Below the pieces are notes generated by a model. The model was not told the DNA's origin. It saw only the letters and a list, made by a program, of their open reading frames with translations, and made no database searches. Shown one piece after another: positions 835 to 34,200 of a DNA stretch of 64,000 bases (position 1 is the first letter of the stretch; each line of letters starts with the position of its first letter). Location of the stretch: positions 929,357 to 993,356 of the forward strand of contig NMRA01000022.1 in the NCBI GenBank assembly GCA_002633005.1, written 5' to 3'. A program made the translations under genes and the position numbers. The stretch is from Phoronis australis (lineage: Eukaryota > Animalia > Phoronida).

Positions 835-2957
835 ACAGGTTCTTCAGAGAAGAGTGGTCTCTATGGGGTAAAAAAGGAACCTATTTCAATAGCCGCGAAT
901 CTTAAAAAAAATCTCTCACATTAATTATTTTCTCAGATAATGACCCACACAAAATCCACACTGAAAAGAAATTAAATACAAGACTCATTATTTTGACTTA
1001 TAACTTATTACCAGATTAGATAAAAATACTTCGTGAAATTTATTGCAAAAATGAAACTAGTGGTCATTGTTCATATCTCTGATTTGAGTCTTCCCGTGAA
1101 GAGATTCCTTGTTTTAGGATGTAGTGATCCGTGAAATTTCCCCAAATTCATGGACGCGAACGAGTGTATTGGAACTGAAGCGGCCGGTGGTAAAGATTTT
1201 GATGGCCCCAACTGAATGGAGGATAGAGTTGATGGGGTCTGAATTACGCACTAAACACTGACATTATCTTCCTGAACCGAATCTCGAGACTATACTACCT
1301 TGCAGACTGAACATTCACCTTCCAGGGTGAGGGTACAGATATTTAAGCCGTTCATAAAGATTTCCCAAGCACACAATCAAATCACAGAGTGTCGCGGCAC
1401 TTGATTAAATATTTTCCTCGTTAATGAGAGAGAAAAAAAAAGACAATTTGAAATGTTAAAATACGCATACAAATCAGATTGTAGCTTAGTATGATAAAAA
1501 TCTGCTCAAATCACTTTAATTTTCCTTGAGATCTACACCAAACTAAAATTTCAGTAGAGTATCTGATAGAGACTAGCAGCGCCCAGCTACTCCTAGTGGC
1601 GGGGAAACGAAGCTTGTATTTATTTGCTTTTCCGAGAAATCAAGGGACGGTTCAGTTGGGAGGTGAATTGTTGTTTGGGTGTCAGGTTAAACCAAAGACG
1701 CTCTACGGTATATGGATAAACCATTTGGTAAATATATTACGTTCGTGTTAATTGTCGGTTCAGTTTCTCACTAAAGGCATGTACATGTAGCACTCACCGA
1801 GTCAACTGGTGTGAAATCATAACCACTGGGCCAAATTTTATTGTATGACCCAGGATCGATTTCGTTGAGTCAGGTCACAGTGAATTGTTCCCAACTGCTT
1901 CCATGTAGGCTTAGCAGGTATTGTACTGTGAATCGTAGAGATTGCAGGTCCCTTGGTCGATTGAAACTAATCAAAATGAAAAGTGCGTAGTGTTAATAAA
2001 CGCGTTTCCGGGTGCCTAAGTTTTATTTGAATTTGACCAGTAAGTTTAATAGGACGGTGAGTAGCCGACTACCTACCGGGCACTGATAAGAGACAGGTAG
2101 TAGGTGTCAGGGGACTAGGCGCTAGACCTGCATTAAGTTGATCCGAAGTAACAAATGGCTGAGACCAACGCCGGCACAAGATGATGATCACTATTTTCCA
2201 AATCTTTCATAGTATATCTTTTTTATTACGAACGTATTACAAACTGCATTACATCAGAACAACATTGATGTTTCTTAGTGGTAAACGGTGAGCAATTAAA
2301 TTAAACAAAATTAAAGTAAACACTAAAACTTTAAGTCTTATTGCTTTATCAAATTAGACATGAACTGACACTTGCTGTAGTTGTGACGATCCAAATAGAA
2401 CATCCTCGAATGTTAGAATGTTCCGGCCAGTCATACATAAATATAACCCCGCGTGCCGCTCGCATATATCAGTATCCCTTTGTCTATGAAAACGTCTACA
2501 TCGAAAAAGCAAACAAATTATGAATAGGCATAATTTGGCAAATTTCTCCTCACCTATTTTATATAAGTGACTTGCGATGCACTTGCTCTCGTTCGGTAAC
2601 TCAAAATTGCTATTCCAAGTGACAAAACCTTCTTCTATGAGAAATTCGCTACCCAAGGTCATGTTTTTCAAGCAATGCATTCCACGGGCCAGTTGTATAA
2701 TACTGAACACTCGACTATCGTATAGAAGAGTTGACATTGACAGTTCTCTGCAAGTCTGTGATGACTCCCCAGGTCAAATCAAAATGGTCGGGACTAGGCG
2801 AGAAAGCATGCTAATGACTTAGAAAGTTAGTGCGCCACCAAGAAGAAATCAACACGGCAAGAAGTTATTTATATCCTGTAAGTTTCATGGACCAGCGAGA
2901 CGAGAAAACAGTTGAAAATGTGGATTCTAAATCTGTAGCCACAAGGATGTATAACTC

Positions 2958-3173
2958 CTGCGCGCACCTAGCCTAAAGAATGTGGGCCTTTTACTAAAAA
3001 AAAACAAAAACAAAAAGCTATGAATGGTGAATATGCTGAATTTTGGTAGTTCCTGCCTTTACAATAGACTTTTGTCTCGTTTCTCGGACTTTTTGTTTCT
3101 CTGAGGCGGACATTTTTACCAACTTCGCCAAAAAGTTCGAGCCCCCCGAACCCCCCCACTGGGTGCGCGCATG
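2958..3173. mobile_element. MITE family B copy (TIR catgcgcgcaccc...gggtgcgcgcatg)
   Basis: Terminal inverted repeats are present. The interior (ggactttttgtttctctgaggcggac...gagccccccgaacccccc) is reverse-complement similar to the copy at 49694-49943. Confidence 0.7.
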
Positions 3174-3233
3174 TAAATGAATCCGTCAACACTACGCTGT
3201 CGTGTCTTACCAGTCATAATTCGCAGACGAAGT

Positions 3234-3575
3234 TTAGACCGTCAGGTCGTGGTCACTCAACAACGGAAGGATANTGCCGAACGCAAACACACTAGGCACA
3301 TTATCTGACTTCAGCCTCGGTTGCTTTTTCTGCCCTGGCATGAGCTGTTTGGCAAGCCGGAATTCGTCAGTGAAATCACTGTCCACGAAATGTCGGTCAC
3401 AGATACGGAGATGTTTCACGGGCTCGTACTTGGTATGAACTCCGTACTTGTCCTTTTTCACTGCCGCGAGCCACTTCCGAAGCATTTTGGGCTCTCGAGG
3501 AAATCGAAAAAACGATGTACCCGCTTTCCTCGCCGCTTCATAGTTCGAACAGGCAGGAACGACTCACCACACCAT
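3234..3575 (-). pseudogene. THAP zinc-finger domain remnant (likely DNA-transposon derived)
   Basis: From a Kozak-context ATG at 3575 the frame reads MVW*VVPACSNY...SFFRFPREPKMLRKWLAAV...LRICDRHFVDSDF...PRLKSDNVPSVF. This matches the THAP signature (C-x4-C, FP, W, ICxxHF, AVP-like box), but the first Cys codon is TGA (3564-3566). No transposase catalytic domain follows. Confidence 0.85.
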
Positions 3576-3999
3576 GGCGGAATTCACTCTGCATACGAAC
3601 CACTGACGTCGCTGCGGACTTTCTCACCTTCCTCACAGGCTAACGCGACACCTCTCGGCAAGGTAAGGTCGACCGTGTACGAGCCGATGTGGCCCCAGAC
3701 CGATTAAGACGGTAAAAAAGACTAATTAAATCGGGTGGCATTAGCCTTTAAGACCATTAAAACAAATTGAACGTCGTATTCAACAATAATTGTCTCAAGG
3801 TTTGTCATTTATTAGGCATGTCTTTACACTCGTATTAGTTCTGATTTGTAAATTTTGGGAGTGATTACTTTAGGAACGATTCTTTAAGACGCAAAAAACG
3901 TGTGTAACATTTTGGGTCACTATGTAGTATGACATTCCTGGTTTCGTGCACACCATACGAACTGTTAAGCCGCTTTTGATGAAATTTGTTGTAGAAAAA

Positions 4000-6600
4000 A
4001 TGATGGAGGAAGAAGACGCTATTCTGAAAAAAATCGAAAACGTTCCCAATTTGTGTCCTGTAAAACTGTCCTCTACGTACCCCGGCAAGGCCCGTGGTGT
4101 TCTTAAAAAGCTTGAACAAGAGTTGTCTGAAGATCCTAAGTCAAGTCCCGAACGGATACTAAAGATGAATCTAAGAACATATTTACACATGGAGATAAAT
4201 AGCTTCAAAGACATTCAAAGTGCTCGCAAACTGAACGAAGAAGTTCGAAAAGAGGAACCCAAAAATCTTGGTGCTATCTGCCTTCACATCAAACTTCTAC
4301 TCTTTAACGACATAGCTCAAGCTAAGAAACAAGCGGACTACATCGATCAGTTGCGCGAAACCGAGGGCTACGGGCAACTGTTCATTGAGGCACGTGCCGA
4401 ACTGGCTTACTGTTATTCACGTTTTGGTCCTGCATTCCACAACCAGTCTTTGAGTCTTTATGAAAGGATTCTAAAACAGGTACCCGACAATTATTTGTGG
4501 AGGTTCGGTTACGGCTTGGTGTTACAAAGGTGTTTAAATACAGAGAATTACGCAGAGTTGAAGACGTTTGATGGTAGTGCCTGTTTCCTCAAAGCTGTTG
4601 ACGCTCTCTACCCAGTTACAAAGTGTTCAGATTCCTCGCTAGCGGCGCAAGCCTGGGTAAAAATAGGATCCTGTGTCATGCTTTACAATAACATGCCTAC
4701 CCAGTGCAAACCGGATTGGGAAAGACCAATAAAATACCTCAGTGAAAGGAATATCACCGATGCGAGGATGTGTTTTGAAAAAGCTTTAGAAATGGACCCG
4801 GACAATGTTGTTGTTTTACAGGAGTGTGGGAGGTTTTATCGCAGGCGTGAAGCTACCCAAAACCTGGAACTAGCACAACGGTATTTGGAAATGGCGTATG
4901 CAAAGCAGCCGACTGTGTTCAACTGCCAACATCTAGCCTTGCTCCTTGAAAATAAATGGGTAGGCGAAATGCAGCGCATGCATAGATCGGAATCGTCTTT
5001 GTATTCACCTGAAAAGAACTCAAGTGATAGACGGCCGCAATTTTTTGTTCCTTGTCTTTACCCTGCACGTCGTATACAAATCCCTGCAACAAAAAGTTCT
5101 GTTCGGCCGTTTTATGTTGCCGATGTCTACCCCGTTCCTAGCTTACAAGCTCCTGTCAATTACGAAACGTCGAATGAATATGAACTTTTTCATTTGTGCG
5201 GTGATCGTCCGTTTTTTGAAGCTCCTGCCAGCAAAAACGTAACACCAGTGGGCAGTGTGGGACAACAGACCACACATCAAAATAAGGGTTTGGTTCAGTC
5301 TTACTCACCATCTCATTCCAGTCGATCGAATGCAGAATTGTTTCGAACTTACTACTTTAGGTCACATGCAAGATTACTCAAAGCTGAGGACGCGAATGAC
5401 CCTGTGCTGATGAAGGTGCTAAAGTATTTACAAGAGGCATGCGACCTGACCAATGCGACTGTAATCTCTGTCTGAAGCATAATGGGCCAAGTCTACCGCC
5501 GTCTTGGGAAGAATAGAGAAGCTATTGATTGTTTCGCGGAGATCTCACGTTGCAGTAGTGCCGGACTCTTGTCCAAAATCTCGGCTTTTGAACAGCGAGG
5601 CTATTGTTTTGTTGAACTCGCAAACATGAGTAGGAATGCAAAAGAAAAGCGTGATAACATCGACAGCGCCTTATCAATGTTATTTCTTGCTATAGAGAAT
5701 GCTGTCCTGTTAGACGGTGCTCTACCGTTTACGTACGGCTGTCCTTCAGAAGAAACACTGCAGGAACTTCTAGAAGAGCAATCACTACAGCGTCCTCGCG
5801 AAAATCATCCTCGTAAGCAACTTAGTAGGTTTCACGAGTTGATAGGAAACCACAAAATTGCCTTGAATTATTTGGAAGACGTTCTCCAACTTGATCCAAA
5901 TGATTTCGGGGCCCATATGCAAAAGGTTCAACTTCTAATGAAATGCGACCAACACGAGAATGCCCTCTGTTTTATGATGATGCTTTTGAAAACTAAGTTT
6001 AAAGATAAAGTTCTCGACAAGAAGGAGCTGATGCTGTTAGCTGCTGTAACGGCCGCAAAAAAACAACTGGACAACGGAGAATTCGAAATAGCCAAGGAAT
6101 ACTTTAAGCGAGCTTACCAGATAAAGTTTGGAATCGTTGATGAAACCAAGCATGATGACAACAACTGTGCACAACTACACGTATTCATTACTGGCAACCC
6201 AACTGAAAGTTGTCTCTACTTTTCATCTGTGATAAAGAAGTACTTCGACCTGGATTGCTTTTCGTTTGACAATGTTCCTCCTGGGGAGTATGTACCTGAA
6301 CATATTTCATCTGCAATAGAGAAGTCCACAAATTTCCTGATAATTATTTCTCAACACTCAACTGACCAAAGAGAATACCATTTCACGCAGGAGGTTCTTA
6401 TGTCTGTGAAGAATAGAAAGTGTGAAACGTATAGCGTAACAGTTTCCACCGGGGACTGTGAAAATATGGATCCATGTTTGAAGCATTGTAGTCCTAATAT
6501 AATTGCTTCGTACAGTGCTTGGAAGAAAACTGGAGAAAGTCCAAAGTTGGTGATTGACCTGTTCAAAGCCATTATCAACTTTAAGGAGAAGGATCTATAG
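4000..6600 (+). CDS. IFIT/TTC22-like TPR protein with C-terminal TIR-like domain, copy 1; interrupted by one in-frame TGA at 5473-5475 (split gene or recent pseudogene)
   Basis: ORFs 3946-5475 and 5482-6600 are in the same frame and together align end to end with the intact paralog at 12544-15327. The ATG at 4000 lies just after the acceptor tttgttgtag (3994). TPR motifs include ARMCFEKALEMDPDN, GQVYRRLGKNREAIDCF and ALNYLEDVLQLDPND. The TIR-like tail reads LHVFITG...FDNVPPGEYVPEHISSAIEKSTNFLIIIS. Confidence 0.8.
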
Positions 6601-7189
6601 AATGGGTCTTTGTGACAAGCACTTTCAGAGTTTCCAACAGAAGGTGCAACTCAGGATTTTTTTCATAGCATGTTGGTAGTGCTGTTCTCTGCATTTGTCA
6701 GCAAATATGGAAGTTTTTGTAAAGTCTCTGCTGATATCGTAGCCGCTTTAATATTAGGTGAAATATTTTCATAAACTCGTCCACCCATAGTAAGCAAAGC
6801 GATAACTGCTCTACGTTGCTAATATTAGTATATTCGTCACATATTAGAAAGAAAAAAATCATCGATATCTGTTACCAAATTATGAATAACCCGGTTTCCC
6901 ATCAACCCTAACATTTCATTCGGCGTACGTATAATGGATGAGATATTTCATTGTCACTGCATGAATTCCGTTTCATCCATTTTCCAACAAGGACGTCGTC
7001 GTTTGCGAGGAGGCGTAGCAGTGGATGGAATATGATTCCGCGTCAGTGTGGACCCTGAGTGCTATGCCTGAGGAACTAACGTTTCCATATTTCTTTGGAG
7101 ATTTAAGGATTTGTTTATGTAAGGAACGCAGTACAATTGAATGATGCAATCAATTTTCGTCGATTTGTAGATATTTGCTAACAACAAAT

Positions 7190-7330
7190 CATGGGCGTAT
7201 CCAGGATTTTGAGTTAGGGGGTCAGGGCAGAGCATTAAGGATTTTGCCCGTCAGACATTCGCACCCCCGAACTGCCAAATGGAATCTGAAAGAATTTTAG
7301 TGGGGTATGGCCCCCTTAAATCCGCCACAG
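7190..7330 (+). mobile_element. MITE family A copy (ggcggatccaggattttgagtt...taaatccgccactg)
   Basis: The same ~150-bp sequence recurs at 34715-34880 and in reverse at 9124-9215 and 63848-64000. It has short imperfect TIRs and near-matching 5-bp flanks (caaat/caaag). Confidence 0.75.
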
Positions 7331-9123
7331 CAAAGAGGGGGGGTGGGTGGGTGGGTTTACCACCTATCCAACGTAGAGCACCATGTGTGTAACTCATTAG
7401 GCGTAGACAAGAAAATGCAAAACCTTCGTTGCCTATGGCCCAGCGAGGTTTCCTTGTTAGTGATCATGACAGGGTAGCGCGCTGAACGTTCTGGGTTTGT
7501 TGACTCGGGTTACAAATGTAACGCCAGGGAACGCCGTTTATGAGTTGTGAGGTGTACATGTTACAATTTTGCATGAACGACTGGCCTGGTTCATTTTAGT
7601 GAAGCTGACTTTTACCTAAATTCCATATTTGGCTCGACCAATGTCGCAAATTTAATTTTGCATTTTTAATGGTTTTCGTCTTAATCTTTAGACTCCTAAA
7701 AAGCGTATTTTGGAACATTCTCAGCGCAGATTTGGCATGTAGAAACGGGTCTCGGATTCTGTCGGATCTAGTTAATATCAAGTAAGAGTCATAACTTTTT
7801 AACTTTATGAACTTAAAGCTTCAACTTTGACTTCCAAAATTATCTTTTTTAAACCTTCGGCTTTGGAAACTTTAGATCTTAGAATTGACCCAAACAGAAG
7901 CAATTGAGGGGATGACATATGCTGTAAGTTTGTAGTATTATATTTTATATTTAGTGTTAAATAAACCGTTTTGTGTCTGATACTCTATCTCTATTTTTTA
8001 TCTCTTTTGAGATGTCACCACGATTCCGCCCGTTTACGACATACGAACTAACTAAAAATACACAACGCTGCGAACTTTAAACTTTGACGAAGCAGTCTAA
8101 AAACTAAATTAGTAGATCCGTGCTGGGAGCTCCACCGATTACAGTTACACATGGGCACACAGCTGCCTGCCTGTAAGAAATAATGCCTCGGCTTGTTTTT
8201 GCAGTGTCACATGATGATTACGGAAAACCTTCAAATTTTGTTTTTGAAACACAAAAATTGGCCCACGAATAATAAAGTTAGTTTGATGTGACTAATATAG
8301 TACATGTATTTTGCTCCGTGGATTCCTGCAGTCAGACATTGTTTCAAAACAGGTGGCCTAACTGACAGGCCCCGGCCTAAGGGCTACCACTCTACTAGCG
8401 ACTGTTACTCATGGGTTCAGTTCTTCAATTTCACGCCAGGTGACACTAATTTTGACCTAGTTTTTATGACGCCTTTTCTTGGAAGAGGTGTTTGTTAAGT
8501 GATATATTTATTGAAGAATACGCAGAACATAAAAAGAAATAGAGATGTTTATGTGATAGCTCTGTCGGGAGATGCAATTTGCGTGTCTAGTAAAACCACT
8601 TTCCAAGTAAGTTACCTAAAAGAAGTCGCTATCAAATATAAGACCGATAAGGCTACCGAGGATGGCTGTCACATCTAATTAGACCCCAGATCTGTTTTCC
8701 TTCGGCTGTTAGCGGGGCTGGCTTAGTTTTTCAATGTCGCATAGCCCGGCCATAGGCTAGCCAGGTCACGTAGAGCGAGCTTAGTCGCCCTTGATAAAGA
8801 CAAGAAGTTGAAACTGGGAATCAGGCAGTACTGGTTCCTAAGGCGAAAGGTACATAGATTAAGGATATATGGCCAAGATCTGGTGTGAACTATCGTCTAA
8901 TTGCCCCGCTGGGCGTTAGGGGTTGCACCGCCTTAGCAGTTGCTCCACAGACCCGACTTAATCACCACCGCTCTAAAACAGTCCTATGACATCGACGGGC
9001 CGGCTGATGACAGTGGCTGTGACGGTTGGGCCCAAGACCTATCAAAGGCCCATCTGACGAGGCATGAAATATGAGCCGCAACGGGATAAATGGGCGGGCG
9101 CCGAATTAACATGGGCGGGGAGG

Positions 9124-10053
9124 CAGTGGCGGATTTTAAGTTAAGGGGAGGGGCCAAGACGGCCATGGCACCCCTAAAATTCTCCTATTTGGCAATTCGG
9201 GGTGCTAATTGCTGACTAGCATATGCACGCACCCGGCGGGGGGGACTCGACTAAAGAGGGATGAATGCACGATGCATAGGCCTTGAACAAATCTCGGTCA
9301 CCGTTTTTTTAGTAAAAAGGTCAACAAACACAAAAATTTGAGACCCTGCATACCTACATTTTAGGCTGGGCGCGCGCATGTGGCGAAATCCTGGTTATTC
9401 ATGTGCCTTGGATCTGCCCCATGGGGGGCTATAGTCCGCCCTGACTTACGTCAGTGCTGCACCACCCATGTAAAAGCCCTTGACTTGCATGTCACCACTT
9501 GTGCTCGCCATCAATCATGAACCGCACAGATTATCTTTGATCAATGCAAACCCTGTTTCGATGATTTCCGGCAACCAAACCTCGTTCTGTGGCCTGCATG
9601 CTAATATATCATTGGCGTCAATCTTCTAAATTAAAGGCAGCAGGAATCAACTAAAAAAATCATACTCCCTACGTCACAGATTGGACATTGTGGTCCTTGG
9701 TGGGTAGTCTTTTTCACAATTGCGGTGCAATTCGCTAAAAGTGTAGGTCACGCTTTCCCGTTTAGAAGAAATTTTTCTACAACTTTTGAAGATTCGCGAG
9801 TGTTACAGAGCTTTATTTCGTTTCTGAGAACTGGATGGGAAATGGTTTTTATGGTTTGATATCCATTTAAGTAAAGAAGTAAAAATACACATTAGAAAAC
9901 GTTGGCACACATGGGCGGCGCAGCACTGAAAAATGTGGGCTATAGCCCCCCCCCCCAGCGCCCCTCAGTGTGGTGCACCCCACATAGACCATGGGCGGGT
10001 CAGGACTGAAATAAGTGGGGGAGGGAGCTATAGCCCTCAGCCCCCTATGGTGC
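9124..10053. mobile_element. Cluster of nested or adjacent MITE fragments (families A, B and a cagtgcaccatagggg-type element)
   Basis: A family A end lies at 9124-9215 and a family B-like copy at ~9220-9380 (…ggctgggcgcgcgcatg). The end gccccctatggtgcactg at ~10035-10053 is reverse-complement similar to 61712-61780. Confidence 0.55.
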
Positions 10054-10248
10054 ACTGTCCATTGTACAGAATACAAAAATTCACCAAGACTGGTTGAATT
10101 TACTGCTCCTAATCTCATTAAAGTTGGTGCCTACTGTGTTGGATGGGCAAATTACGTTTTAAGCTGCATGCAACTTTTTATGTGAAGGTTACAAATGACC
10201 ATTGGTTGGTTTTGAGTCTATACTGAGTGAAAGATTGCTGGTTGTTAC

Positions 10249-10320
10249 ATAATAATAATATTAGTAATAGTAATAGTAATGATAATGATAATGATAATGA
10301 TAATATAAGAATAATAATAA
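10249..10320. repeat. (TAA)n/(TAATAG)n/(TAATGA)n compound microsatellite
   Basis: Simple repeat visible directly in the sequence. Confidence 0.9.
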
Positions 10321-12543
10321 AGTTATTAGGAACACACAAGTGCAGAGAAATAAAAGAAAAACATAAAAACAGAAGACAAAAACAAAAACAAAAGTACTAG
10401 TGTAAGACACGGATAACATAACGAGTCAAAGACTTATTTCCATTATGGTCTGTGTTGATCTCTGACCCACTTTTGCTCAGTTATGCCTTTGGTTAAACGT
10501 TTACTGCTTGCAAATGTGAAGTTGAAATTTAACAGGAAATTTAGGTACGGGTTAGACGCTTTAGATCTGTACATGTAAGAAGTGACTGATCGACACCCAG
10601 TTTTCTCCTGGTTTCTACATATATAATGCACCAGAAGGTTGTGGCACTCTGGATGCACTGTGACTAACGTTTGTAGTACTTGCATTCAAATTTTGGCTTT
10701 GTGGTGAACATTGCTGATTTGATGTATTTTTGTTCGTTTTTTTAGATAGCCGGTTACACTTGAGGTAGTCGTAAAAGATTGAAGAATGACCTTTTAATAA
10801 GTTTCAGTGGATTTTATATAAGGTTTTGAAGTCTTTGCCAATTACACTGTTCATATATTTTCAGGTTTATTACACCCTGTGGAACAGATTGTTAAGAGTT
10901 TCACAGACCAGGTTTCACAAGCCCCAAACCAGCAAAACTATTGAGCGTCACCGCCTGAAACCACAAGACATATAGGTGAGTGCAATCGAAGGGGCATTGT
11001 TTCTGTGTAGGCTGGCGAGACCAGCTGCTTGTGTAGCGGAATGTGTGTCAAATTCCCCCGACGACTTCTTGTGTGTGTGGACGCGATTTTTGATGTGTTT
11101 GGGTGCAGACGTAAACCTGGAAATACGCGTGGAATCATAGTTACGCTTGCCAGATCATCAACTAAGCTATAGCATACGATCGACAAACAAGACGCCCTGC
11201 GTCTGCAGACACAGGGCGATAATTTTTTAATAAACTTGTGACTACGTTTATGTATACAATACAGGACAAAATTCACGCTATGTGGAGCAACATTGTCTTT
11301 ATTAAATGCAGTGGAGGTTCATGAAGAAATTGTATTTCGTGGAAAACACCTTTTGCTGGTGAATTGTTTTGTGCTTGCTTTAGACGCTCGTGACGTAAAC
11401 TCGAGTCAGCGAGCAGCTGTTTTACTATGCTTCTCTGAAATTTGAAAGGTTATTTTAGTGTATCAAAAGTTAAAATTCCTGTACATGTACTTACATGTAA
11501 CTAGTGTCGTACTTTTCTCGATGATAATATAACCTCGTCGGCAAATTGAACCTCAATATGCATGCACGTAGGTCAAACAAAATGGGCTCTCTTGCTCATT
11601 TTTCCTACCAACCCTTTACTCTCTAAAAACGGAAATACCAACAATCAACATATCTTTTAAAATAACTTGCAAATATTTACGGATACCTGATGTTTAATGG
11701 TGATGTGTCCATTGTCTGCTGGGCCCAGATAAGTCGTTCTCATGCCGAACGATAATGGCAAATTGGACGTCTAATTCGGCGTCTGAAAATTTGGCATGTG
11801 AACGCTCGTCATGGTATTATGCTTTTTGCCGATGTTGTTGCTGTTGGTTGTGTCTTTCAATTAAGTTCACGATTGGACAATTGATTCATTCGATTTTGAA
11901 GTTTGTGATTTTGTTTTGACGTAATTAGTGCGAATGGGCGAATAGAAACTGAATACACTCGATTCAAAGCCTAATAAATAACAGCGCGTCCCCCTTTTTG
12001 ATATCTGATTAGAGTGAGAGCAGCAATCATATGGGGGCGTTCGTGTGACCCCATTTCTATGTGATGGTCCCCTGCTACATTGCAACACCGTAAATTTCGA
12101 ATTCCTAATTGTGGGCCCTGGTGTCCATTAAGGTATACTCTCAAGGTTTAACATGCAACGTGTGAAGTTACATACATGAAAGATGAACCCCTTGAGCGAA
12201 AGCGACAAATGACAGAAAAAGAGATCCAAGAGAAATACATGCTTTTGAGCAGTCCTTTGACATCATTCCGAGAGAATCGACGCAGGCGGAGACTGCGTGT
12301 AACGGTCTAGATTTTCTGCAATTGACTGTTTTTAATTGGTACCTGGCTATCGTATTTTTTATGTAGACCACTGAATGTTGACCTTTTTGCCTGGTAATAG
12401 AGTTAGCAGTTTGTCCAGTCCCCATATTGCGAGTGAGTGGATAGAAATAGCTTAATTTGATCCTGTTGCACATGTTATACTAATGTATGTACACTACTTG
12501 TAAACTACTTGCTTGTATGAGACTAACAATTTGTTTTAGGATA

Positions 12544-15327
12544 ATGGTTTCGGAGGCGGATATTCTTCTAAATAGACTTGAAGATGTTCCCAACATATGC
12601 CAGGTAAAGCTGGGTTCTACGAATCCGGGCAAGATCAAGGGCGTTCTGAAGAGGCTCGAGCAGGAAATGTGTGAGGATACTACACATGGTGTGGAGTGGT
12701 TACGAAGCATGAACCTGAAGACATACTTACATATGGAGATAAATAGCTTCAAGGACATCAAAAGTGCTCGCAAATTGAACGAAGAAGTTAGAAAAGCAAA
12801 ACCTGATAACCTTGCTGCTATCTGTCACCACATTCGGCTTCTGCTCATTAATGATATTGCTCAAGCTAGGAAACAAGTGGATCATGTCGATCAGTTGCGC
12901 AAAACGCCAGGTTACGGAGAGTTGGTCCTTGAAGCGAAGGCCGAGTTGGCTTACTGCTATTCACGCTTTGGTCCTACATTCCACAACCAGTCTCTGAGTC
13001 TTTTTGAAGAGGTTCTTGCGGTGACATCCAACAATTACTTGTGGAGGTTTGGTTACGGTCTAGTGTTACAAAGGTGCCTCAATCCAGAGAATTATGTTGC
13101 GTCTCAAAAATTTGATGGCACTGCCTTTTTCCTCAAAGCTGTTGACGCGTTGTACGAAGTGACGAAATCTACAGACACCGCATTAGCTGCGCAAGGGTGG
13201 GTAAAAATAGGAACTTGCATCACTCTTTACAAGAAAATGACTAAGGAGTATAAACCAGGTGAAGAAGTGGCTATGAAACGGCTCAGTGTGCTGAATATAA
13301 ACCATGCGAAGATGTGTTACGAAAAGGCCATACAAATAGCACCGGAAAATCGTATTGTATTACAAGAGTGCGGACGGTTTTACCGCAGGCGTGAATACCA
13401 AAACATGGAGCTTGCAGAAATGTATTTGAAAAAGGCACACGAAATACAGCCGACTGTTTTCAACTGTCAACATTTAGGTTTGCTACACATTGATAAATGG
13501 AAAGTTGAAATGCGCATGCGTAGATCTCCATCGTTTCCTAATTCCCCTCACAGAAGCACTGGGGTCCGTGGCAGGAGTCCTAAGTACAGTGACAGGGGCT
13601 GCAGAAGGGATGGGGTCAGTGTTTCAAGAAAACTCCAGTGGGAGAGTAGTTCCTTGCGCCCGCCTGATGTAAAGGATAGACCTGAAAGTCGATTAAGTCA
13701 TTCTATATCTTTGCCAGCCAGTGAACCAAATCTAGAATCGGGCTACTACAGTTCAGACTTCTGTGAAGCTGACACTAATTTAAGAGCAAACTTTTCGGCT
13801 TTAGCTGTGTCCCCGGAAAGTCACATGCCTAGGCTTTCCGAAACGCTGAGGTCTCGGCAACAATTTTGTGTTCCAGTTGTTACGCCCGGACGTGGCTCAC
13901 AAATTCGCACTGCACTAAACAAAGGTGAAAGTGCTTCTTCAACAACTGTCTGTCAGAACGTAACACCAACACGTAGTTCGGAACAACAGGCCACGCCGCA
14001 AAATATACGTTCCGTCAAGTCTTCCTTATATTCCAGTTCAAGCCAAGAAATTTCGAGCGCAGATATTATTCGAAGGTACATAAAGTCGCCTAAAGTATTA
14101 CTCAAAGCTGATGACCCAGGTGATCCTAACCTGAACAATGCATTACAGTATTTGGAGGAAGCATGTAAGCTGACCAAGGAAACCATAATATCTGTCATGA
14201 GCATAAGTGGTCAAGTCTACCGCCATCTCGGGAAGAATAAAGACGCTATTGATTGTTTTGCGGAGGTCACACGTTGCGGCAGCGCCGGACTCTTGTCCAA
14301 AATTTCGGCTTTCGAACAACAAGGCTATTGTTTTGTTGAACTCGCAAACATGAGCAGGGATGAGGTTGAAAGGCGCGATTATCTCGATAGCGCCCTGGCG
14401 ATGTTCTTTTTTGCAATAGAGAATGCTGTCTTATTAGAAGTAGACTTACCGTTTGCGTACGGCCCTCCTTCTAAAAAAACACTGCAGGAGCTTCTAGAAG
14501 AGCAATCACTACAGCGTCCTCGTGAAAAGCAGCCCCGTAAACAACTTAGTGACTTTCACCAGTTGATAGGAAACCACAAAATTGCCTTGAGTTATCTGGA
14601 CGATGTTCTTCGACTTGATCCTAATGACTTCGAAGCCCATATGAAAAAGGCACAACTTCTAATGAAAGATGGCCAGCATGAGAAAGCCCTCTGTTTTATG
14701 ATGATGCTTTTGAAAACTAAGTTTAAAAATCAAGTACTGAACGAGAAGAAGTCGATGCTCCTAGCTGCTGTTACGGCCGCAAATAAACGACTGGAGAACA
14801 ACGAAATTGAAATCGCCAAGGAATACTTCAAGCGAGCTTACCAGATAAAATTTGGAGTCGTGGATGAAGGCAAAGATGATGACGACAGCTATGCACAACT
14901 ACATGTATTCATTACTGGCAACCCACCGGAAAGTTTTCCCTATTTTTCATCTGTATTAAAAAGGTACTTCGACCTGGAGTGTTTTTCGTCTGACAATATT
15001 TTTCCAGGGAGGCATGTACCTGAAGTGATTTCAACTGCAATAGAGAAGTCCACCAATTTCCTGATAATAGGTTCACAACCCAAAGCCGACCAAAAGGAAT
15101 TCCATATTATACAAGAGGTTCTTGTGTCTGTGAAGAGCAGACAGTCTGAAAGGTATAGCTTAACGGTTTCTGCCGATGGCAGTGGATGTATGGATCCATG
15201 TTTGAAACATTGTAGCCCTAATATAATTGCTCCGTTCAGTGATTGGAAGAAATCTGATGAAAGTCCAAAGTTGGTGGTTGACCTGTTCAAAGCCATTATC
15301 AGCTTCAACCAGGTGTCCTCTCAGTGA
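12544..15327 (+). CDS. IFIT/TTC22-like TPR protein with Ser/Arg-rich insert and C-terminal TIR-like domain, copy 2 (intact, 927 aa)
   Basis: Uninterrupted ORF. The ATG at 12544 follows a branch point gactaac (12521) and acceptor ttgttttag (12539), which implies an upstream non-coding exon. IFIT-like segments are EAKAELAYCYSRFGP...LFEEVLAVTSNNYLWRFGYGLVLQR and VLQECGRFYRRRE...AEMYLKKAHEIQPT. The TIR-like segment reads LHVFITG...SDNIFPGRHVPEVISTAIEKSTNFLIIGS...IIQEVL. Confidence 0.9.
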   Translation: MVSEADILLNRLEDVPNICQVKLGSTNPGKIKGVLKRLEQEMCEDTTHGVEWLRSMNLKTYLHMEINSFKDIKSARKLNEEVRKAKPDNLAAICHHIRLLLINDIAQARKQVDHVDQLRKTPGYGELVLEAKAELAYCYSRFGPTFHNQSLSLFEEVLAVTSNNYLWRFGYGLVLQRCLNPENYVASQKFDGTAFFLKAVDALYEVTKSTDTALAAQGWVKIGTCITLYKKMTKEYKPGEEVAMKRLSVLNINHAKMCYEKAIQIAPENRIVLQECGRFYRRREYQNMELAEMYLKKAHEIQPTVFNCQHLGLLHIDKWKVEMRMRRSPSFPNSPHRSTGVRGRSPKYSDRGCRRDGVSVSRKLQWESSSLRPPDVKDRPESRLSHSISLPASEPNLESGYYSSDFCEADTNLRANFSALAVSPESHMPRLSETLRSRQQFCVPVVTPGRGSQIRTALNKGESASSTTVCQNVTPTRSSEQQATPQNIRSVKSSLYSSSSQEISSADIIRRYIKSPKVLLKADDPGDPNLNNALQYLEEACKLTKETIISVMSISGQVYRHLGKNKDAIDCFAEVTRCGSAGLLSKISAFEQQGYCFVELANMSRDEVERRDYLDSALAMFFFAIENAVLLEVDLPFAYGPPSKKTLQELLEEQSLQRPREKQPRKQLSDFHQLIGNHKIALSYLDDVLRLDPNDFEAHMKKAQLLMKDGQHEKALCFMMMLLKTKFKNQVLNEKKSMLLAAVTAANKRLENNEIEIAKEYFKRAYQIKFGVVDEGKDDDDSYAQLHVFITGNPPESFPYFSSVLKRYFDLECFSSDNIFPGRHVPEVISTAIEKSTNFLIIGSQPKADQKEFHIIQEVLVSVKSRQSERYSLTVSADGSGCMDPCLKHCSPNIIAPFSDWKKSDESPKLVVDLFKAIISFNQVSSQ

Positions 15328-17351: not shown

Positions 17352-19037
17352 GGCCGGTTGCATGAAACACTGAGTCCCAAATATCTAAGGTTATAAGTCT
17401 TTTTGCGTATTTGTGCTTTTATTGACTCACTGATGCAATATTTTTCAATCAGTTTATCTTTATTATGATCTCCTCTTTGATTAATGACATTTCCTAATAA
17501 TATAACTAAAAACTGAGCCCAGAGTTCGTTGAAATTAAATAGCGCATACCGTGAGTAATACGCTTACAAGGAAGCAACGCATTTCTAAAGATATGCGGGA
17601 ATTTTCACCGCTCGTCCTAGCTTCTGAGCGTCTTTTTCCAGGATCAAAGAGAGAGCGCAGCGCCGGAGTCAGGTACAGTTGTGATGACCACATTGCGCTA
17701 TACGAGCAAGACCCAATTAAGTGTAATTACCCCACCATAAACTGTTAAACATCTCTGCCTGTACATAATGGAGAATTTTCAAAATGCATAAACCAATAAC
17801 TTTCGTTAAAAACGAACACCACGGCGACATTCAGCTGGAAAAAAAACAACCAAGTACGGTTTTCAATTTTTAAAAATCAATGAACTACAGTAATAATCCA
17901 AAAACTACAACCATTGATTGGATTAAAAATAAACTACCGCGCGTATTGATATACTCGGTGGATATACAAACGCTGATCAGAGTAAACAATATGACATGGA
18001 TTCATTTTTTTAATATTCTTTCAATCTCGTTTAACCAGATTTTTGACCAGGAAACAGTTGTACTTAAATAACTTGTGCCCACTTTTTTATTACTGACAAA
18101 GAGCTACATGTAGAATAGTTATATAGTCAGTGCCACCAAAATTGTCCCGAGAGATTTTAAGTCTTCAGTTTGGTTATCACCATTGCACTTTGTATATATT
18201 TTATGATTTGAGTTCCAATGAAGATTAAACTTTAATGAAATGCTTAGTACAGGCACCTGTAATGTGGAAAGTTCAAGGATGGGCTCACAATGAACTTAAC
18301 TAATTAAGTTTCGCTGGCGATCAAAATCTACCTTTGTTTTGGTACTTCAAGTTTAAAACTTAGATAAAAAGTTATCAACCAGTTCCAGGTAAAAAAAAAC
18401 AAAACACAATGGACAGAAGCACTAAAAATTAAATAGAGAAAATGAAACATATCGTTCCTTTGGGAGGTGGCCCCAATGTGAAGATAAACACAAGTTAACC
18501 TTTTTAGTCATTGTGTAATATTTATAATGAACCAAGTTAACACTACTCTCCATAGTTGCAGGCTGTAACTCTGCAAATGTCAGAGGAAACCCTGAAATAG
18601 CTAGGGCCGGGTTCAGTGACGACAACCCATGATTTTTGTGACAGTGATGCTACAGCTACATGTAGCTATTACCTTTCTACTTCATTGAGCTCAGATCTAC
18701 ATCAATACAAAGGGCGTGTTGGATAGGCATCGTAACAGTAGTGAGGGGCTAAGGGAATCGGTGACCAGTGTAAGCGAGAAATTCTCCACATGGGGGACTC
18801 GGTCCTTAAATTGGTGGTGACGTTTTATGAAAAGATCCTTAATTATTTTTGATAATATTGACAATTATAGTAGAGTTCACTCTCAATTTGTCAAAAATTG
18901 ACTTAGTATTGAAACTAAAATAACGCAAGAAAGGGCAATCGATGTTTTCACGAGTCCCAAAATACGCAGTAGGCCTAAAAGAATTTTGAACTTAGCAGAG
19001 TTCCTATACTGACTGAGGGATTTCATGCAACCGAGCA
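17352..19037. mobile_element. Non-autonomous TIR element, family C (PIF/Harbinger-like MITE), long copy
   Basis: Ends are tggccggttgcatgaaa ... tttcatgcaaccgagca. It shares internal motifs (ataactaaaaactgagccc; gaaaagatcc; aaaaattgactta) with 50724-51112. Confidence 0.65.
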
Positions 19038-20944
19038 CTCAACAAATTCGTCGCCGCCACCGCCTAATGTCACTGGTGCATGCCCTCGAATGTCTAAATT
19101 TGTTGTTTAACTTCGGTCAAAAATAAGAAAGCACAGTAGCCTAGTAAAAACAGCACGTGATAGCCTTTCGGACGACTAACACACGCTTTATGGCCCCTGA
19201 CTTCGCAAAGTTTGTTTTCTCACATGACCTGGAATTATCTCATTGACCTAAATACTATGTAGGTCAAGTTAAAATGGCAGGAGTGTGAGTCTTGTAAAGA
19301 AACGTGTTATCTCGGTAAACGCAGTATTTCAGCACTATTGACTTGGTGCGGTAGGTACCTCATTGTTTGACGTNNNNNNNNNNNNNNNNNNNNNNNNNNN
19401 NNNNNNNNNNNNNNNNNNNNNNNNNNNNNNNNNNNNNNNNNNNNNNNNNNNNNNNNNNNNNNNNNNNNNNNNNNNNNNNNNNNNNNNNNNNNNNNNNNNN
19501 NNNNNNNNNNNNNNNNNNNNNNNNNNNNNNNNNNNNNNNNNNNNNNNNNNNNNNNNNNNNNNNNNNNNNNNNNNNNNNNNNNNNNNNNNNNNNNNNNNNN
19601 NNNNNNNNNNNNNNNNNNNNNNNNNNNNNNNNNNNNNNNNNNNNNNNNNNNNNNNNNNNNNNNNNNNNNNNNNNNNNNNNNNNNNNNNNNNNNNNNNNNN
19701 NNNNNNNNNNNNNNNNNNNNNNNNNNNNNNNNNNNNNNNNNNNNNNNNNNNNNNNNNNNNNNNNNNNNNNNNNNNNNNNNNNNNNNNNNNNNNNNNNNNN
19801 NNNNNNNNNNNNNNNNNNNNNNNNNNNNNNNNNNNNNNNNNNNNNNNNNNNNNNNNNNNNNNNNNNNNNNNNNNNNNNNNNNNNNNNNNNNNNNNNNNNN
19901 NNNNNNNNNNNNNNNNNNNNNNNNNNNNNNNNNNNNNNNNNNNNNNNNNNNNNNNNNNNNNNNNNNNNNNNNNNNNNNNNNNNNNNNNNNNNNNNNNNNN
20001 NNNNNNNNNNNNNNNNNNNNNNNNNNNNNNNNNNNNNNNNNNNNNNNNNNNNNNNNNNNNNNNNNNNNNNNNNNNNNNNNNNNNNNNNNNNNNNNNNNNN
20101 NNNNNNNNNNNNNNNNNNNNNNNNNNNNNNNNNNNNNNNNNNNNNNNNNNNNNNNNNNNNNNNNNNNNNNNNNNNNNNNNNNNNNNNNNNNNNNNNNNNN
20201 NNNNNNNNNNNNNNNNNNNNNNNNNNNNNNNNNNNNNNNNNNNNNNNNNNNNNNNNNNNNNNNNNNNNNNNNNNNNNNNNNNNNNNNNNNNNNNNNNNNN
20301 NNNNNNNNNNNNNNNNNNNNNNNNNNNNNNNNNNNNNNNNNNNNNNNNNNNNNTTCTCCACATGGGGGACTCGGTCCTTAAATTGGTGGTGACGTTTTAT
20401 GAAAAGATCCTTAATTATTTTTGATAATATTGACAACTATAGTAGAGTTCACTCTCAATTTGTCAAAAATTGACTTAGTATTGAAACTAAAATAACGCAA
20501 GAAAGGGCAATCGATGTTTTCACGAGTCCCAAAATACGCAGTAGGCCTAAAAGAATTTTGAACTTAGCAGACTCCTATACTGACTGAGGGATTTCATGCA
20601 ACCGAGCACTCAACAAATTCGTCGCCGCCACCGCCTAATGTCACTGGTGCATGCCCTCGAATGTCTAAATTTGTTGTTTAACTTCGCTCAAAAATAAGAA
20701 AGCACAGTAGCCTAGTAAAAACAGCACGTGATAGCCTTTCGGACGACTAACACACGCTTTATGGCCCCTGACTTCGCAAAGTTTGTTTTCTCACATGACC
20801 TGGAATTATCTCATTGACCTAAATACTATGTAGGTCAAGTTAAAATGGCAGGAGTGTGAGTCTTGTAAAGAAACGTGTTATCTCGGTAAACGCAGTATTT
20901 CAGCACTATTGACTTGGTGCGGTAGGTACCTCATTGTTTGACGT
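18782..20944. other. Scaffold gap (N, 19374-20353) flanked by a ~590-bp direct duplication, probably an unmerged contig overlap
   Basis: 18782-19373 is almost identical to 20354-20944, and the copies abut the gap exactly. Confidence 0.85.
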
Positions 20945-28200: not shown

Positions 28201-31200
28201 TTTGGCATATAGATATGTATTAAGGAGACCACAATGTCTTCCAGTTTTAGGATAGATTTGACGTATTTTGTACCACCTGTGTTTTTGGCATTTGCTTCTA
28301 TTTCTGCGAAACCACTTGAAGAATCATAATGAAAACTGTCACATGAGATGAGCTCTGCTGAATTTAATTTTCGGACAGCTACAATTACTTTGGCACCTTC
28401 TTGTAGAACTTTTATTTCCATACACAGCTGCATTTCCTAAGTCCCTTACAGGATCTTTCTGACACTAGAAGATGACCACTTTCTGACACATCCAGCTACT
28501 GCTGTGACCCCTGGTGGCAGTTTTATTTTTTTGTACTTTCCTGTGTATCTTCATAGTTCTTTGACAAATTTTTATGAAATATGGTAAAATGGTTTGCATT
28601 AAGGAGATGATGATGCTTTCCTATTTTTGGATGGGAATTTTGTCTTACTTTGCATTTGATATCTACCAACTTCCTTGATTGATGTTCATGAAAGTTGGCA
28701 AATAAGTTTCTGTCTTTGAGGCTACGACTCCTGCTCTAGTGAAGGAGCATTTGACGTATGCTGCACACCCTACTGGCCTTTGTTACTATTTTGTTTGATT
28801 GTTCATCTCCTTATCTGCCACACCTGTTGAGGAATTACGATGAAAGATGGCTGGCGCAATCCTGATGAGAAGAGCATTGCTGACATGCTGTGTGTTCCCT
28901 AGAGGCTACATGTATATTAAGTTTATCAGTGTTGCACCCTCTTGTGGCTGTGTTCAAAATATTGATCATCCCTCGTATCTGTATTTTTTACCATGCACAT
29001 AGTGGGCAAGTATCAGTGCTTTGCATTGCCCTTAAGTTATTTAATATCACGACTACTCACATTTGAATTGGACCACTTGAACCACAAGTAAATAGTTTTC
29101 GCTTGTTATGTTAACGTATAATTTTTGAACTTTGTAAGAGCTGATATCACTTAGGACTGTGTTCAACTAGCTGACTGGGTTATTTAATTATATCTGTCTC
29201 AAAAGATATATTAATTAATAGCCGCATGTTGACTAGGTTGGTTCTCGAACTTGACACTAGATGGAGTGATTGCTGCATCATCATGGATGTTTAGCATTTT
29301 TAATTCATTCCAGAATGACCTGCCAATGATTTACCTGCCTATGCACAAGAGTCACTTGGACTACATCCTGTTGACCTATATACTCTACCATTATGACATC
29401 AAGGCACCCCACGTGGCCGCAGGTGATAATCTGGACATTCCTCTCTTTAGGTGAGGTGCGCTTACCTGTTACCAATAGACTTCCATTTTTATGCCCTCAA
29501 ACATTTTCGGGTTGCATTGTAGTCCAGAATCGGAATATTCACTTATTTTGCATAAAGACAATTGCCTAAATTTTAATTTTTCTACTTTTCAAAGGCTGAT
29601 TACTTACTAGGTACAATTAATGGTATATTCAACAAGTGTTGTTTTGTTAGATCTACACAGTACAAACCAGGCTAGTAACAGACTAGCATATCTTAATATG
29701 CAATTTTGTGAAGGAATTTGAGAAACTAGAATTTCACTTGTTGGCCACATTTATGTGCTAAAGAAGTGATTGAAGAATTACCTTGCACTCATAGTCCAAG
29801 TCAAGACATTCGAGGTGAAAAGTCTTAAGTGGGTTTTGGATTAGTCTTTAATGTGTCATATTTCGTACTATGTCAGCAAACAGCATCTTTCACAAAAGAC
29901 CAACTGCATACTATATGTGATATGCCCTAGAACTACAGGATTGGTGTCTATCAACTAGATACATCACCAAAAAACTGGTTTGAAGTTAGTAAATTTGCAT
30001 CCATCTAATTTTTGTTGGACAGAGTCTTAGACAACCAAATTGGGCATCCAATGTTTGCTTTTAATTTCAGACATTTCACAGTTTATTGTACGCAGTAGTG
30101 TCTATCGGATGGAGCTGAAGTCGACATATTTGAATTATTGTCTGCTAGCCTGGGTCTGTAATAGTTACATTTCATGCAAGACTTCCCTCTGAGGTCCTGC
30201 GACATTGACCAAATTTATGTGTGTGTGTTTAAAATTCATTGTGTTTATTTTCAGTTGGTTAATGAGGGGACTTGGAGGGTTTTTCATCCGCAGGCGACTT
30301 GATATGACCAGTGGCAAGAAAGACGTTATTTACAGAGCTATCTTACAGAGTGTATGTCACTGACACTTTTTGCTGTTTTTTTTTTCAACTACCAATAGCA
30401 GATCGTCTTCGTAACTAGAAGTATACCTGGTTGTTTTTTATGGTTGAAACTTTCTAAAACTCTTAAAGTTTGCTTGGAGCACCAAAATATTCACTGAAAA
30501 CTGGAACTAATACTTAAATTTCTTCGTAAGCATTCTTTTCAGCTTGAGATACTGAAATTTGCAAGGTGAGGTGAAAAGTTATAATTTTTTTTGGAAGAAG
30601 GACATTGCCTTTGTAAGCATTTCAGTTCCTTCAGGTACCACCTCAACACTGGTCACAATGTGGCTAAACACTAGCATTTTCACTTGCATTTTTGCTAGTA
30701 GCTAAAACACCAGAAATGTGAACGATTAGTGTCTGTTTTGCTGACAGTTTGGGTTACTCCAAATTTTCTTTCATTTTCACTTGCACTTTTGTAACCACGC
30801 AGCTTACTTTGAAGAACACAAATGTGTAGGGGTAAGAGGTCTTTGTTCATCGTCGCATTAATCAATTCATGGCAGAGAGTGGATGTTCGTAACATCAATT
30901 TTCACTTAAATAACAATTTTGATAGTGAGGAAGTTAACTGTTGGGTAAAATGAGCCCTGTTGGGCAGCTTGCCTGTCTAGCTAAATTGCTAGCATTTTCG
31001 CTAGCATTTTAGCATTTTTGCCGCTCATGTGAACCTAGTATTAATATCTGGATAGGCTCTTTCCATTCAAAATTAGACCCATGCCCTCTAATTTTCAGGA
31101 AAATAGTTTTTCTGTGCTTGAAATGAAGGATTTCTGTTTGCACATTTTAGTACATGTTGGAGTTGCTGAAGAATGGCCAGTCAATGGAGTTTTTTATCGA

Positions 31201-34200
31201 GGGGGGACGGTCAAGAAATGGTAAAGCTATTAGGCCCAAAGGAGGTTTGCTGTCTGTGGTCGTAGACTCAGTTACTAGTGGTAAGTTTGTATTTACATTG
31301 AGGGCAACTGCTCTGTCTGTCGGCTGCACTGACATTTTAAGAAAACATATTTGTGATACAAGTTAGCAGAATAGCACAACTGTGCCGTGGGAACTGTCAG
31401 TGGAAAGTGAATGGGGGGAAGGGTATATTTCATTCAGAGACATTTGAAGTGGATCCCAGCATGAATGTGAACTTTTCATTCGATGGGAATCAGTTAAAAA
31501 TGTTAGGTATTGCCCATACAAGCAAAATAAAAGCAATGTTGCTGTGCATTCTGGGTAAACTGTACTTCTAATTCCTTGCGTCATAGTCAGTCAGAGCTCT
31601 TGTGAAGTGTAGATGATATGTCTAAGAATGTATTGACATAATATAAAAATAAATTGTTTATTGTCTCCTGTTAAAAATATGCGAACTCACTTAACTGGGA
31701 GATGAGTGCGAACTCGTTTCCTGCGTTGTTTTTTTTAGAAAATGTACATAAGCATCGCTTTTATTGTTTTCATGGTGTCTCATTAAACATGCTTCTCAAC
31801 TTCGATTTTTCCAGTTTAAATGCCAGCTTTTCATTTAATCGTACTGACTGTACATGGTAAAATCTGATAATAAACGGTGACAAAATGTTATGTTTTACTT
31901 AATTAGATTTACACAGTACTTATGTCATTGTAGACCATCTGAGGGGTGAGTAAGGTTCTCACTTAATTTCAGTAATAAGCGGTTAGGATTGACAGCTGGT
32001 ACGACTCAGTAAAAAAGTAGCGATTAGACTGGAAGGTCAAAGTCAAGTTCTGTGTTTAGTAAGACTTGTATGAAAGAAGGAATTGGCTGTTCCCAGCATT
32101 AGAGTTAGATACTAGAGAGATATTTACCTGTTGGGTAAACTTGAATAGTGAATTGTGCAAATCTCAATGCTTATGCCCCACACCAGTTCCTCTCTATTGC
32201 ATTCTGGGATAGTTTGTATGCCTAGCAGCAGCGTGAGAGTTTGTATACAGAAGAGATTATTATATTTAGCTGCCCTGTTCAATTATTAAGACTAAAAAAA
32301 TATGTTACAAGTTCTTAGTAAAATTTGTACAATCCAAGACATGTGCTTATAGTTTACCTGGCCCCGGTCTCGTCTCCAATCTCCGTACTCAGACTCGAAT
32401 CATGCTCAGACTCACACTTCATACTCACCGCACATCATTGCCGCCAATTTTTAAAGTCCTTACTACGATTCCTGGCAACTGGCGAATGATAATCCCATGT
32501 CGATGAGTCATTACAAGGGTCAAAAGCAGCTGTGGAGTGGGATTGCCGTGATTGAAGTGCGTGTGCAACGGTTTGTACGGTTTACTAAGGAAAGTTAATG
32601 AAAACAATTTGCTTCCCTGTCAGATTTCACATAATAGTTGAGTCATCCATAATTCCTCAATCCCTGAATGGCATTCCAGATTTTTTTTTGCCGATTTATG
32701 AGTAGACGTCTCGTCCCGTTTACTGATGAACTCTGAATGCCTGTCTATAGTGTACTACAGTCTGTAGTTCTGTAGTAGTATTTATTTATTATAGTGACAA
32801 GTACAATTGAATCAATAGGTATAACATTCGTAAGAAAGATACCCAGCCCAGTTGGGCTTATTAGTCACTTTAACCACACAACTCAGATGTAAGCCTACCA
32901 TAAATGCGTCGGTTTCTAAGTTCAAAAGCAGACTTGATATATTTGGCAAATTGCCCAGGGAAATACTGAAATAACAGTTTTAACGTAATCTAATCTAATG
33001 AAATCTACAAATTTCGGCATTTGAATTGAAACATTATTAAACAGAATAGACCTCTGTGAGTTATAAAGAGAACAGTGTTTTAAGTCGCGTGCCAAATGTC
33101 AGCTAACTTGATACATCCCAGTAAAATGCAAAGATGCAGTATCAAAGTATTGACATCATCATAGGCCTACACGGTTTACTAGAAAAGAACACCACGGCTG
33201 GCAATTAAGATACAAACTTTTGAAATTCGACCTCCCGTCGAAGAAAATGTGCAATTCGAACTCTCCCTTAAAAATGTTGGTTGCAGGCCTGTGATATGGT
33301 ACCTGATTCCCGTACCAGGGTCACCGGCCCACCACTGCATTAATGAAAAAGATAATTTCAATATGCCGTCAATCGTTGCTGTGACCATGCCAATTTTAGG
33401 AGTAATGAGTCAAGTGTAGGCCGGGGAGAATGACCCCTGACTAAATCAGACACTGAGATTTTGGCTGCTCCACTCCGGCCGACTGACTTTCTTTGATAAG
33501 CTGTTTCAAATTTCTTGAGACATTTTCCGGCGGGAGATAAGGAACTCAAGAAGTAAAGCTTAATAATTGGCAAATGTACATGTATCAAGAAATGGTAGGA
33601 GAATATTGTATTGAATAGTTACAGAACACTCAGCATTACACGTTATACTCCTGTAATTGTAGCGAAAGCCGACGATAACATAGTTGCTAGGGTAGTCGAT
33701 GTGTATATAGGGAGTGCTGAATCAGAGCGACTTTTCGCAGTTTTGCATTTCACATCATAACTGAAGAGTTCTTGTCCATAGCAACTCGAGTACGATTCTC
33801 TGAGATTTGAGTACGCGTTTGGAGTCTATTCGAAATTTGACATTAAAATACGCTTTTTCGAGTAGGCCTACGACTCCAGTGAGCACGATTTTGAGTATGA
33901 AGTCTCGAGTATGAGTATGAGCCTGACAGAGATTGCAGACCGGGCCCCGAAGTCACAGTGGACAGAGCTGCAACGTTGACTTTATTCATATCCAATTATT
34001 TCTATAATAAAATACAGTTGCATGCTTCCTGCACTAGTTATTCGTTTAATATTAATTTTTGGATAAGAATTCAAATAAAATAACTTTATTCACCGCTTCT
34101 GTGCTAAACATTCATTACAAAAACACCTGGCAACACTGTACACAATCGGTTGTCAAGCGATAGAGGCATACATTTCCCATAATGCAACTGCGGCGACAAA

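Follow-up and report, generated by a model that had tools for sequence, protein, structure and literature searches.

What might a protein do in which an IFIT-like TPR clamp precedes a TIR domain on a single chain? The question is raised by a tandem gene pair in a 64,000-nucleotide stretch of the Phoronis australis genome (contig NMRA01000022.1, positions 929,357 to 993,356; hereafter the window), in which gene B (12544-15327, + strand) is an intact single-exon coding sequence (CDS) for a 927-residue protein (P0001), and gene A (4000-6600, + strand) is a paralogue of the same architecture with 866 codons and one in-frame stop. Common to both are a TPR block, a low-complexity insert, a second TPR block and an alpha/beta domain of about 140 residues. 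We propose, at a probability of about 0.5, that gene B encodes an immune receptor in which an RNA-end-sensing, IFIT-homologous clamp is coupled to a TIR domain that signals by scaffolding. With its extra domain, the gene B protein is no IFIT strictly speaking; it resembles an IFIT with a TIR adaptor attached, and its architecture is that of an uncharacterised, tandemly expanded family.

The TPR part provides the firmest ground. A profile of the family matched IFIT1 (E 7.5e-33) and IFIT5 (E 4.6e-31) in the PDB as the best natural proteins, the next natural non-IFIT protein following at 2e-16, while designed consensus TPRs scored equal to or higher than IFIT; gene B by itself barely reached IFIT5 (E 0.046), and identity to IFIT1/IFIT5 is 16-17%. 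The N-block profile is colinear with IFIT1 from its N-terminus and with IFIT5 over 34-187 and 235-387; by this alignment, the insert falls into the loop that joins the IFIT pivot helices. In the AlphaFold model of gene B (model confidence, pLDDT, 76), residues 4-327 (12553-13524, + strand) correspond to IFIT subdomains I-II and the first pivot helix, residues 334-499 (13543-14040, + strand) to a disordered Ser/Arg/Pro-rich insert at the pivot-loop position (pLDDT <50), and residues 505-770 (14056-14853, + strand) to the second TPR block with the second pivot helix, subdomain III and further helices. With Foldseek, template-modelling (TM) scores normalised by target were 0.60-0.69 for IFIT1/5 and at most 0.43 for the other listed chains; two long TPR chains came ahead of IFIT1/5 by E-value, yet with a TM score of 0.15. 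Superposition with VIA covered 438 of the 454 residues of IFIT1, at Z 24.3, and 451 of the 482 residues of IFIT5, whose residues 2-482 align to 1-725 of the model; the best non-IFIT structure reached Z 19.9 over 283 residues. A three-subdomain TPR clamp with pivot helices, some 450-480 residues long, is thus predicted for gene B. A generic TPR identity was rejected, given the profile ranking, in which IFIT1/5 stand first among natural proteins, and the difference between Z 24.3 and 19.9. The first-pass annotation, made from the letters of this DNA, had likened the N-terminal block to IFIT and TTC22: the specific affinity holds by profile, superposition and the Atlas, whereas the IFIT match spans both TPR blocks and not the first alone.

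TTC22, a vertebrate TPR protein (PF30990), shares in this affinity. For the N block of the homologue P0009, the TTC22 and IFIT clusters of the Atlas scored 0.95-0.96 with TM scores of 0.67-0.78, all other listed rows remaining at or below 0.51, and a second homologue, P0004, aligned to TTC22 over 4-720 (TM 0.64 by target). At about 500-565 residues, and with no TIR family listed in its Atlas clusters, TTC22 is unlike the family studied here. That the TPR part is homologous to IFIT/TTC22 we hold with near certainty.

If the clamp is of IFIT type, the residues by which IFITs hold RNA should be informative, and IFIT5 R186, K150, R260, K257 and R294 are named as RNA contacts in the available text of two reports (PMC9677429, PMC13197388), where an approximately 30-fold effect is also tabulated for R253. 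We mapped these sites onto the family by hand-reading the profile alignment, and ranked 523 well-filled TPR columns in 100 relatives by their Lys/Arg content. The column of gene B R177 (IFIT5 R186) ranks first (95/100), that of R141 (K150) second (88/100) and that of R281 (R260) third (84/99), followed by R278 (K257) at rank 7, position 316 (R294) at rank 10 and position 37 (IFIT1 R38), which is Arg/Lys in the window copies, at rank 22. Such a coincidence of top basic columns with IFIT5 contacts has p ~7e-4 among the 46 columns with at least 40% Lys/Arg, a value that takes columns as independent, which they are not. At least four of the five mapped contact sites are retained in 75 of the 100 relatives, and gene B R37, R141, R177, R278 and R281 all map onto IFIT RNA contacts; counting the basic IFIT5 contacts (K150, R186, R253, K257, R260, R294), four of six are present in both window copies and five of six in the family consensus. 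The RNA-sensor proposal gains support because these putative phosphate-binding residues are conserved, and RNA or another polyphosphate is the probable ligand. The same channel might instead belong to an immune receptor whose ligand is a pathogen protein or some polyanion other than RNA; a triphosphate site that is only partly retained, a Glu at 275 in both copies and the fast divergence of the paralogues would suit such a ligand, but the best-kept basic columns are those of the RNA-backbone and triphosphate contacts, and we consider it improbable.

The C-terminal domain of gene B (residues 786-919; 14899-15300, + strand) had been called TIR-like in the first-pass annotation on the strength of sequence motifs, all of which are present, and it does model as a TIR fold. 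Modelled alone (pLDDT 77), it returned only TIR or SEFIR structures in the top 18 rows of the VIA comparison, led by IL-1RAcPb (Z 14.3, rmsd 2.6, 133 aligned residues), IL-18Rbeta (13.4) and MyD88 (13.1), with SARM1 and TIRAP at 12.6 and the best non-TIR structure at 10.7. A response-regulator or flavodoxin fold was rejected, receiver domains reaching Z 10.0 at most; Foldseek gave a weaker result with receiver domains mixed in. The model predicts a five-stranded flavodoxin-like TIR fold with a BB loop, whose Pro-Gly lies at 821-822. Pfam TIR_2 is above cut-off in the relatives P0023 and P0065, and the window TIRs are below Pfam cut-offs. Likeness to MyD88, MAL/TIRAP, IL-1RAcP and oyster TIR-STING comprises the fold (Z 11.9-14.3) and a BB-loop Pro-Gly in both window copies, whereas gene B lacks a death domain, a membrane segment and a STING domain and carries its putative sensor on the same chain.

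Whether such a TIR domain would act as an enzyme can be approached through one residue. A conserved Glu in helix C is the catalytic residue of NADase TIRs. In the family, not one of 86 relatives has Glu in the column aligned to it, and the window copies have Ile856 or Thr there; the conserved Glu faces a Val where amphioxus P0023 aligns, weakly (E 0.05-0.08), with TLR6 and oyster TIR-STING. The Glu-containing helix named in the first-pass annotation as part of the TIR-like pattern has its Glu, E858 in both window copies, two residues past that column, at a position that is Glu in 21 of 86 relatives, a local register shift being possible for the two window copies. Because Glu is found in 0 of 86 at the catalytic column, scaffolding appears likelier than NADase activity for the TIR, and the NAD+-cleavage branch of the original proposal is unlikely. 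A sensor-NADase in the manner of SARM1 or of bacterial TPR-TIR defence, in which ligand switches on NAD+ cleavage, draws on the Z of 12.6 for the SARM1 TIR, on E858 in helix C and on the shared logic of TPR sensor plus TIR; the absence of Glu from the catalytic column, an IFIT-type TPR part, bacterial Atlas rows at only 0.85-0.87 and the lack of any PADLOC model match for gene B at E<=0.001 make it the most improbable of the rivals we consider. A four-copy TIR complex prediction, run without an alignment, scored 0.02 and carries no weight either way.

The family extends far beyond phoronids. With phmmer, run in full, 244 proteins reached E<=0.001, and the family counts rest on the best 150: 141 of these have the N block and 120 both TPR blocks. 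In 90 of the 120 near-complete relatives a TIR was found with the family's own TIR profile, a count that is partly circular, since 87 of these sequences went into that profile, which also picks up TIRs in rows outside its own, such as P0003, P0033, P0127, P0133 and the lamprey protein P0196 (E 9.6e-7). Among the 30 clusters checked, the 26 named ones comprise 19 from molluscs, two from hemichordates, three from amphioxus and two from lampreys, and one further, mostly echinoderm TPR+TIR_2 cluster scored 0.96 as an Atlas match only, not aligned. Among the phmmer matches listed, the nearest are at 26-29% identity, and over the nearest relatives as a whole the range is 26-32%. Nearly all record names read 'uncharacterized', two Biomphalaria records being auto-named IFIT5 or IFIT5-like. 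The family is therefore unnamed, as had been suspected of an undescribed invertebrate group, but lampreys carry it too; being multi-copy, it is no characterised housekeeping single-copy orthologue. At one site across 92 rows, the Ser/Arg/Gly-rich insert is anywhere between 0 and 405 residues long. Word-index searches, in which P0001 had no matches, the family alignment only 15 generic TPR proteins and P0023 1-330 only amphioxus relatives, never reached TTC22 or IFIT, a sign of low sensitivity and not of absence.

This distribution bears on two further explanations. One is an effector of IFIT type, which would capture the ends of foreign RNAs and prevent their translation while a degenerate TIR merely localises, oligomerises or damps signalling. 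It would show the same conservation of RNA contacts, and the TIR is indeed divergent, below Pfam cut-offs and absent from some relatives, with a ratio of non-synonymous to synonymous substitution (dN/dS) between the copies of 0.55 as against 0.19-0.24 in the TPR blocks; yet a TIR kept in three quarters of near-complete relatives, in protostomes and deuterostomes alike, and having signalling TIRs as its nearest folds, renders a purely effector role unlikely. A cellular scaffold of TTC22 type, or a binder of self RNA or phosphopeptide without any infection-sensing role, could account for TTC22 clusters standing level with or above IFIT for homologues, for the alteration of four IFIT5 contacts in the window copies and for the failure of a motif scan to find a promoter signal. 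Lineage-specific duplication, the low identity to nearest relatives, a broken copy and the TIR are unlike a single-copy housekeeping gene, and such a scaffold seems distinctly unlikely. Birth-and-death evolution would fit the many divergent paralogues, the tandem loci, the broken copy and a fusion of TRIM type.

Several unusual members were seen in the course of this survey. In P0083 (Sinanodonta) the entire module lies behind a RING/B-box/coiled-coil/FN3 TRIM, P0003 (Batillaria) is a tandem double and P0176 (Haliotis) has two TIRs, all of them possible gene-model joins. Lampreys have two loci (P0061/P0188 and P0111/P0196) with short isoforms of 331-363 residues that contain the N block only and are possibly TIR-less decoy forms.

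For an RNA-end receptor that signals by TIR scaffolding, the following mechanism can be envisaged. In the cytosol, the clamp would grip the phosphate-bearing 5' end of a foreign RNA, 5'-triphosphorylated or with an under-methylated cap, which would be held between subdomains I-III by R141, R177, R278, R281 and R37. The clamp might then close about the pivot, the site of the variable disordered insert, or several copies might crowd on one RNA; either event could free the TIR to recruit MyD88-like adaptors, so that the signal would pass by TIR-TIR scaffolding and not by NAD+ cleavage. As to its history, we infer that the bilaterian ancestor already had the fused form, that molluscs, hemichordates, amphioxus and lampreys retained it, and that IFIT and TTC22 of jawed vertebrates derive from it by loss of the TIR. 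The wider claim is that IFIT-TIR proteins form a class of cytosolic pattern-recognition receptors for RNA ends that has gone unrecognised, spans the bilaterians and is older than interferon, and that jawed vertebrates derived IFIT effectors and TTC22 from it by TIR loss, the receptor form being kept and diversified in lampreys, amphioxus, acorn worms and molluscs; we put it forward tentatively, at somewhat short of even odds.

A number of observations weigh against receptor function and its proposed history. IFIT structures were included in AlphaFold training, and no superposition underlies the contact map. IFIT5 R253, with its tabulated effect, is Q274 here, in a column with Lys/Arg in 6 of 100 relatives (rank 288); the window copies have Ile/Val at Y250, Glu (275) at Y254 and Ile/Glu at R294, E33 and Q41 are not retained, and the arginines that are conserved could serve structure. 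By structure, the N block of P0009 is as close to TTC22 (TM 0.78) as to IFIT (0.71), or slightly closer, and TTC22 is not known for RNA-end sensing. No TIR was found at E<1e-3 in 30 of the 120 near-complete relatives, 17 of which are shorter than 650 residues and perhaps cut, and the BB-loop Pro is present in only 36 of 86 relatives. The family tree, which places the A/B pair on a long branch without a supported sister, holds family members only, IFIT and TTC22 not being included, and so says little on the direction of TIR loss. Expression is very low in the three RNA runs, and the 16 words resembling interferon-stimulated response elements (ISRE) in the 64 kb are at chance level, without clear enrichment at genes A and B; ISRE or kB promoter evidence was dropped after this motif scan of the window.

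According to the available text of a 2013 survey (PMC3688568), IFITs occur only in jawed vertebrates, having arisen with them and with interferon, and BLAST hits in amphioxus, acorn worm and lamprey were rejected; those hits can be compared with the present family by animal group only. Unlike IFITs, the family occurs in lineages without known interferon, and it has a C-terminal TIR, extra helices and the pivot-loop insert where IFITs are TPR-only; the whole-length fold, colinear sequence, tandem copies and the retained equivalents of R186, K150, R260, K257 and IFIT1 R38 are shared with IFIT1/IFIT5 (PDB 6c6k, 5udi, 4hor, 3zgq), R253, Y250, Y254, E33 and Q41 being the sites not retained. An invertebrate 'TIR-TPR' class is named without detail in the accessible portions of PMC4346834 and PMC9334734, and ecTIR-DC families are cited in those of PMC6321704; both resemble gene B in having TIR and TPR on one chain and differ in being, as far as these portions go, domain tallies without an IFIT link or domain order. 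Our literature search, with most subscription papers and preprint supplements outside its reach, found no description of an IFIT-TIR fusion. Were the proposal true, the origin of IFITs would move from jawed vertebrates and interferon back to the bilaterian ancestor, IFITs would be recast as receptors minus their signalling domain, and a testable candidate RNA sensor would be at hand for animals with interferon-like antiviral responses such as oysters, interferon-like pathways in molluscs being treated in the part of PMC6723221 that is available.

The gene pair was originally described as two single-exon paralogues of shared architecture. Both genes are in tandem on the + strand and 63% identical, with differences mostly in the central insert, and neither needs an intron, but gene A is not intact. 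Its open reading frame (ORF) is split into two abutting frames, 3928-5475 and 5476-6600, with the ATG at 4000, by a premature TGA (5473-5475, + strand) at codon 492, near the start of the second TPR block; the matching codon of gene B is ATG. The TIR-coding stretch (6169-6582, + strand; Pfam TIR E 0.005, under cut-off; family TIR profile E 6e-13) lies 3' of this stop. A 463-base contig of DNA reads over 5165-5627, at full depth (48) and from one individual in a run that may be the assembly's source, has 0 differences, TGA included, and an assembly error was excluded on this basis; selenocysteine was rejected, the family column being Leu/Ile/Val/Met, with no search made for a selenocysteine insertion sequence (SECIS). 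RNA depth over gene A is 0-2, too low to reveal the stop. Gene A is probably a recent pseudogene or null allele. From dN/dS between A and B of 0.19 in the N block, 0.24 in the second block, past the stop, and 0.55 in the TIR, we infer that constraint on gene A lasted until recently. Synonymous distance falls from 1.09 in the N block to 0.48 and 0.31 in the 3' blocks (5236-6584 against 13957-15308), which suggests that the 3' half has undergone gene conversion. Two codons past the TGA (5473-5484 region), where gene B has AGT, gene A has an in-frame ATG; hypothetical re-initiation there would yield a TPR+TIR chain of its own, about 370 residues long. Directly upstream of gene A, a THAP-domain fragment (3276-3563, - strand; Pfam E 4e-16) in a high-copy repeat at ~2920-3960 is likely a transposon remnant, and may have disturbed the promoter or an intron of gene A. 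No third copy was found within the window.

Gene B occupies a stop-to-stop frame of 947 codons (12484-15327) with its ATG at 12544, and is transcribed at a depth of ~1-5 in 3/3 RNA runs, about a fifth of each having been read, with nearly all reads in + strand transcript orientation; reads cross the insert-coding stretch in one run. Splice signals and read placement suggest a layout of one non-coding exon followed by one coding exon. The candidate 5' exon (10865-10975, + strand) has AG upstream, GTGAGT downstream and no ATG, and sense reads fall in its bin in 3/3 runs, with none over 11308-12442 and no splice joint listed; the candidate acceptor (12523-12539, + strand) combines a branch-point-like CTAAC, a pyrimidine tract and an AG four bases ahead of the ATG. 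IFIT genes, by the available text of PMC3688568, have two exons, the last of which holds almost all of the CDS. One coding exon behind a putative 5' exon would make gene B alike, with the difference that its ATG sits in the large exon.

Elsewhere in the window, a glycerol-3-phosphate acyltransferase-like gene has exons at ~29200-45400 (+ strand) with Acyltransferase and GPAT_C matches, and an ORF for dynein light chain type 1 lies at 52010-52279 (- strand; E 1e-42). Near-identical adjacent duplicates (98-99%) surround N gaps at 53517-55842 and 18782-20944, and are probably assembly overlaps or haplotypes.
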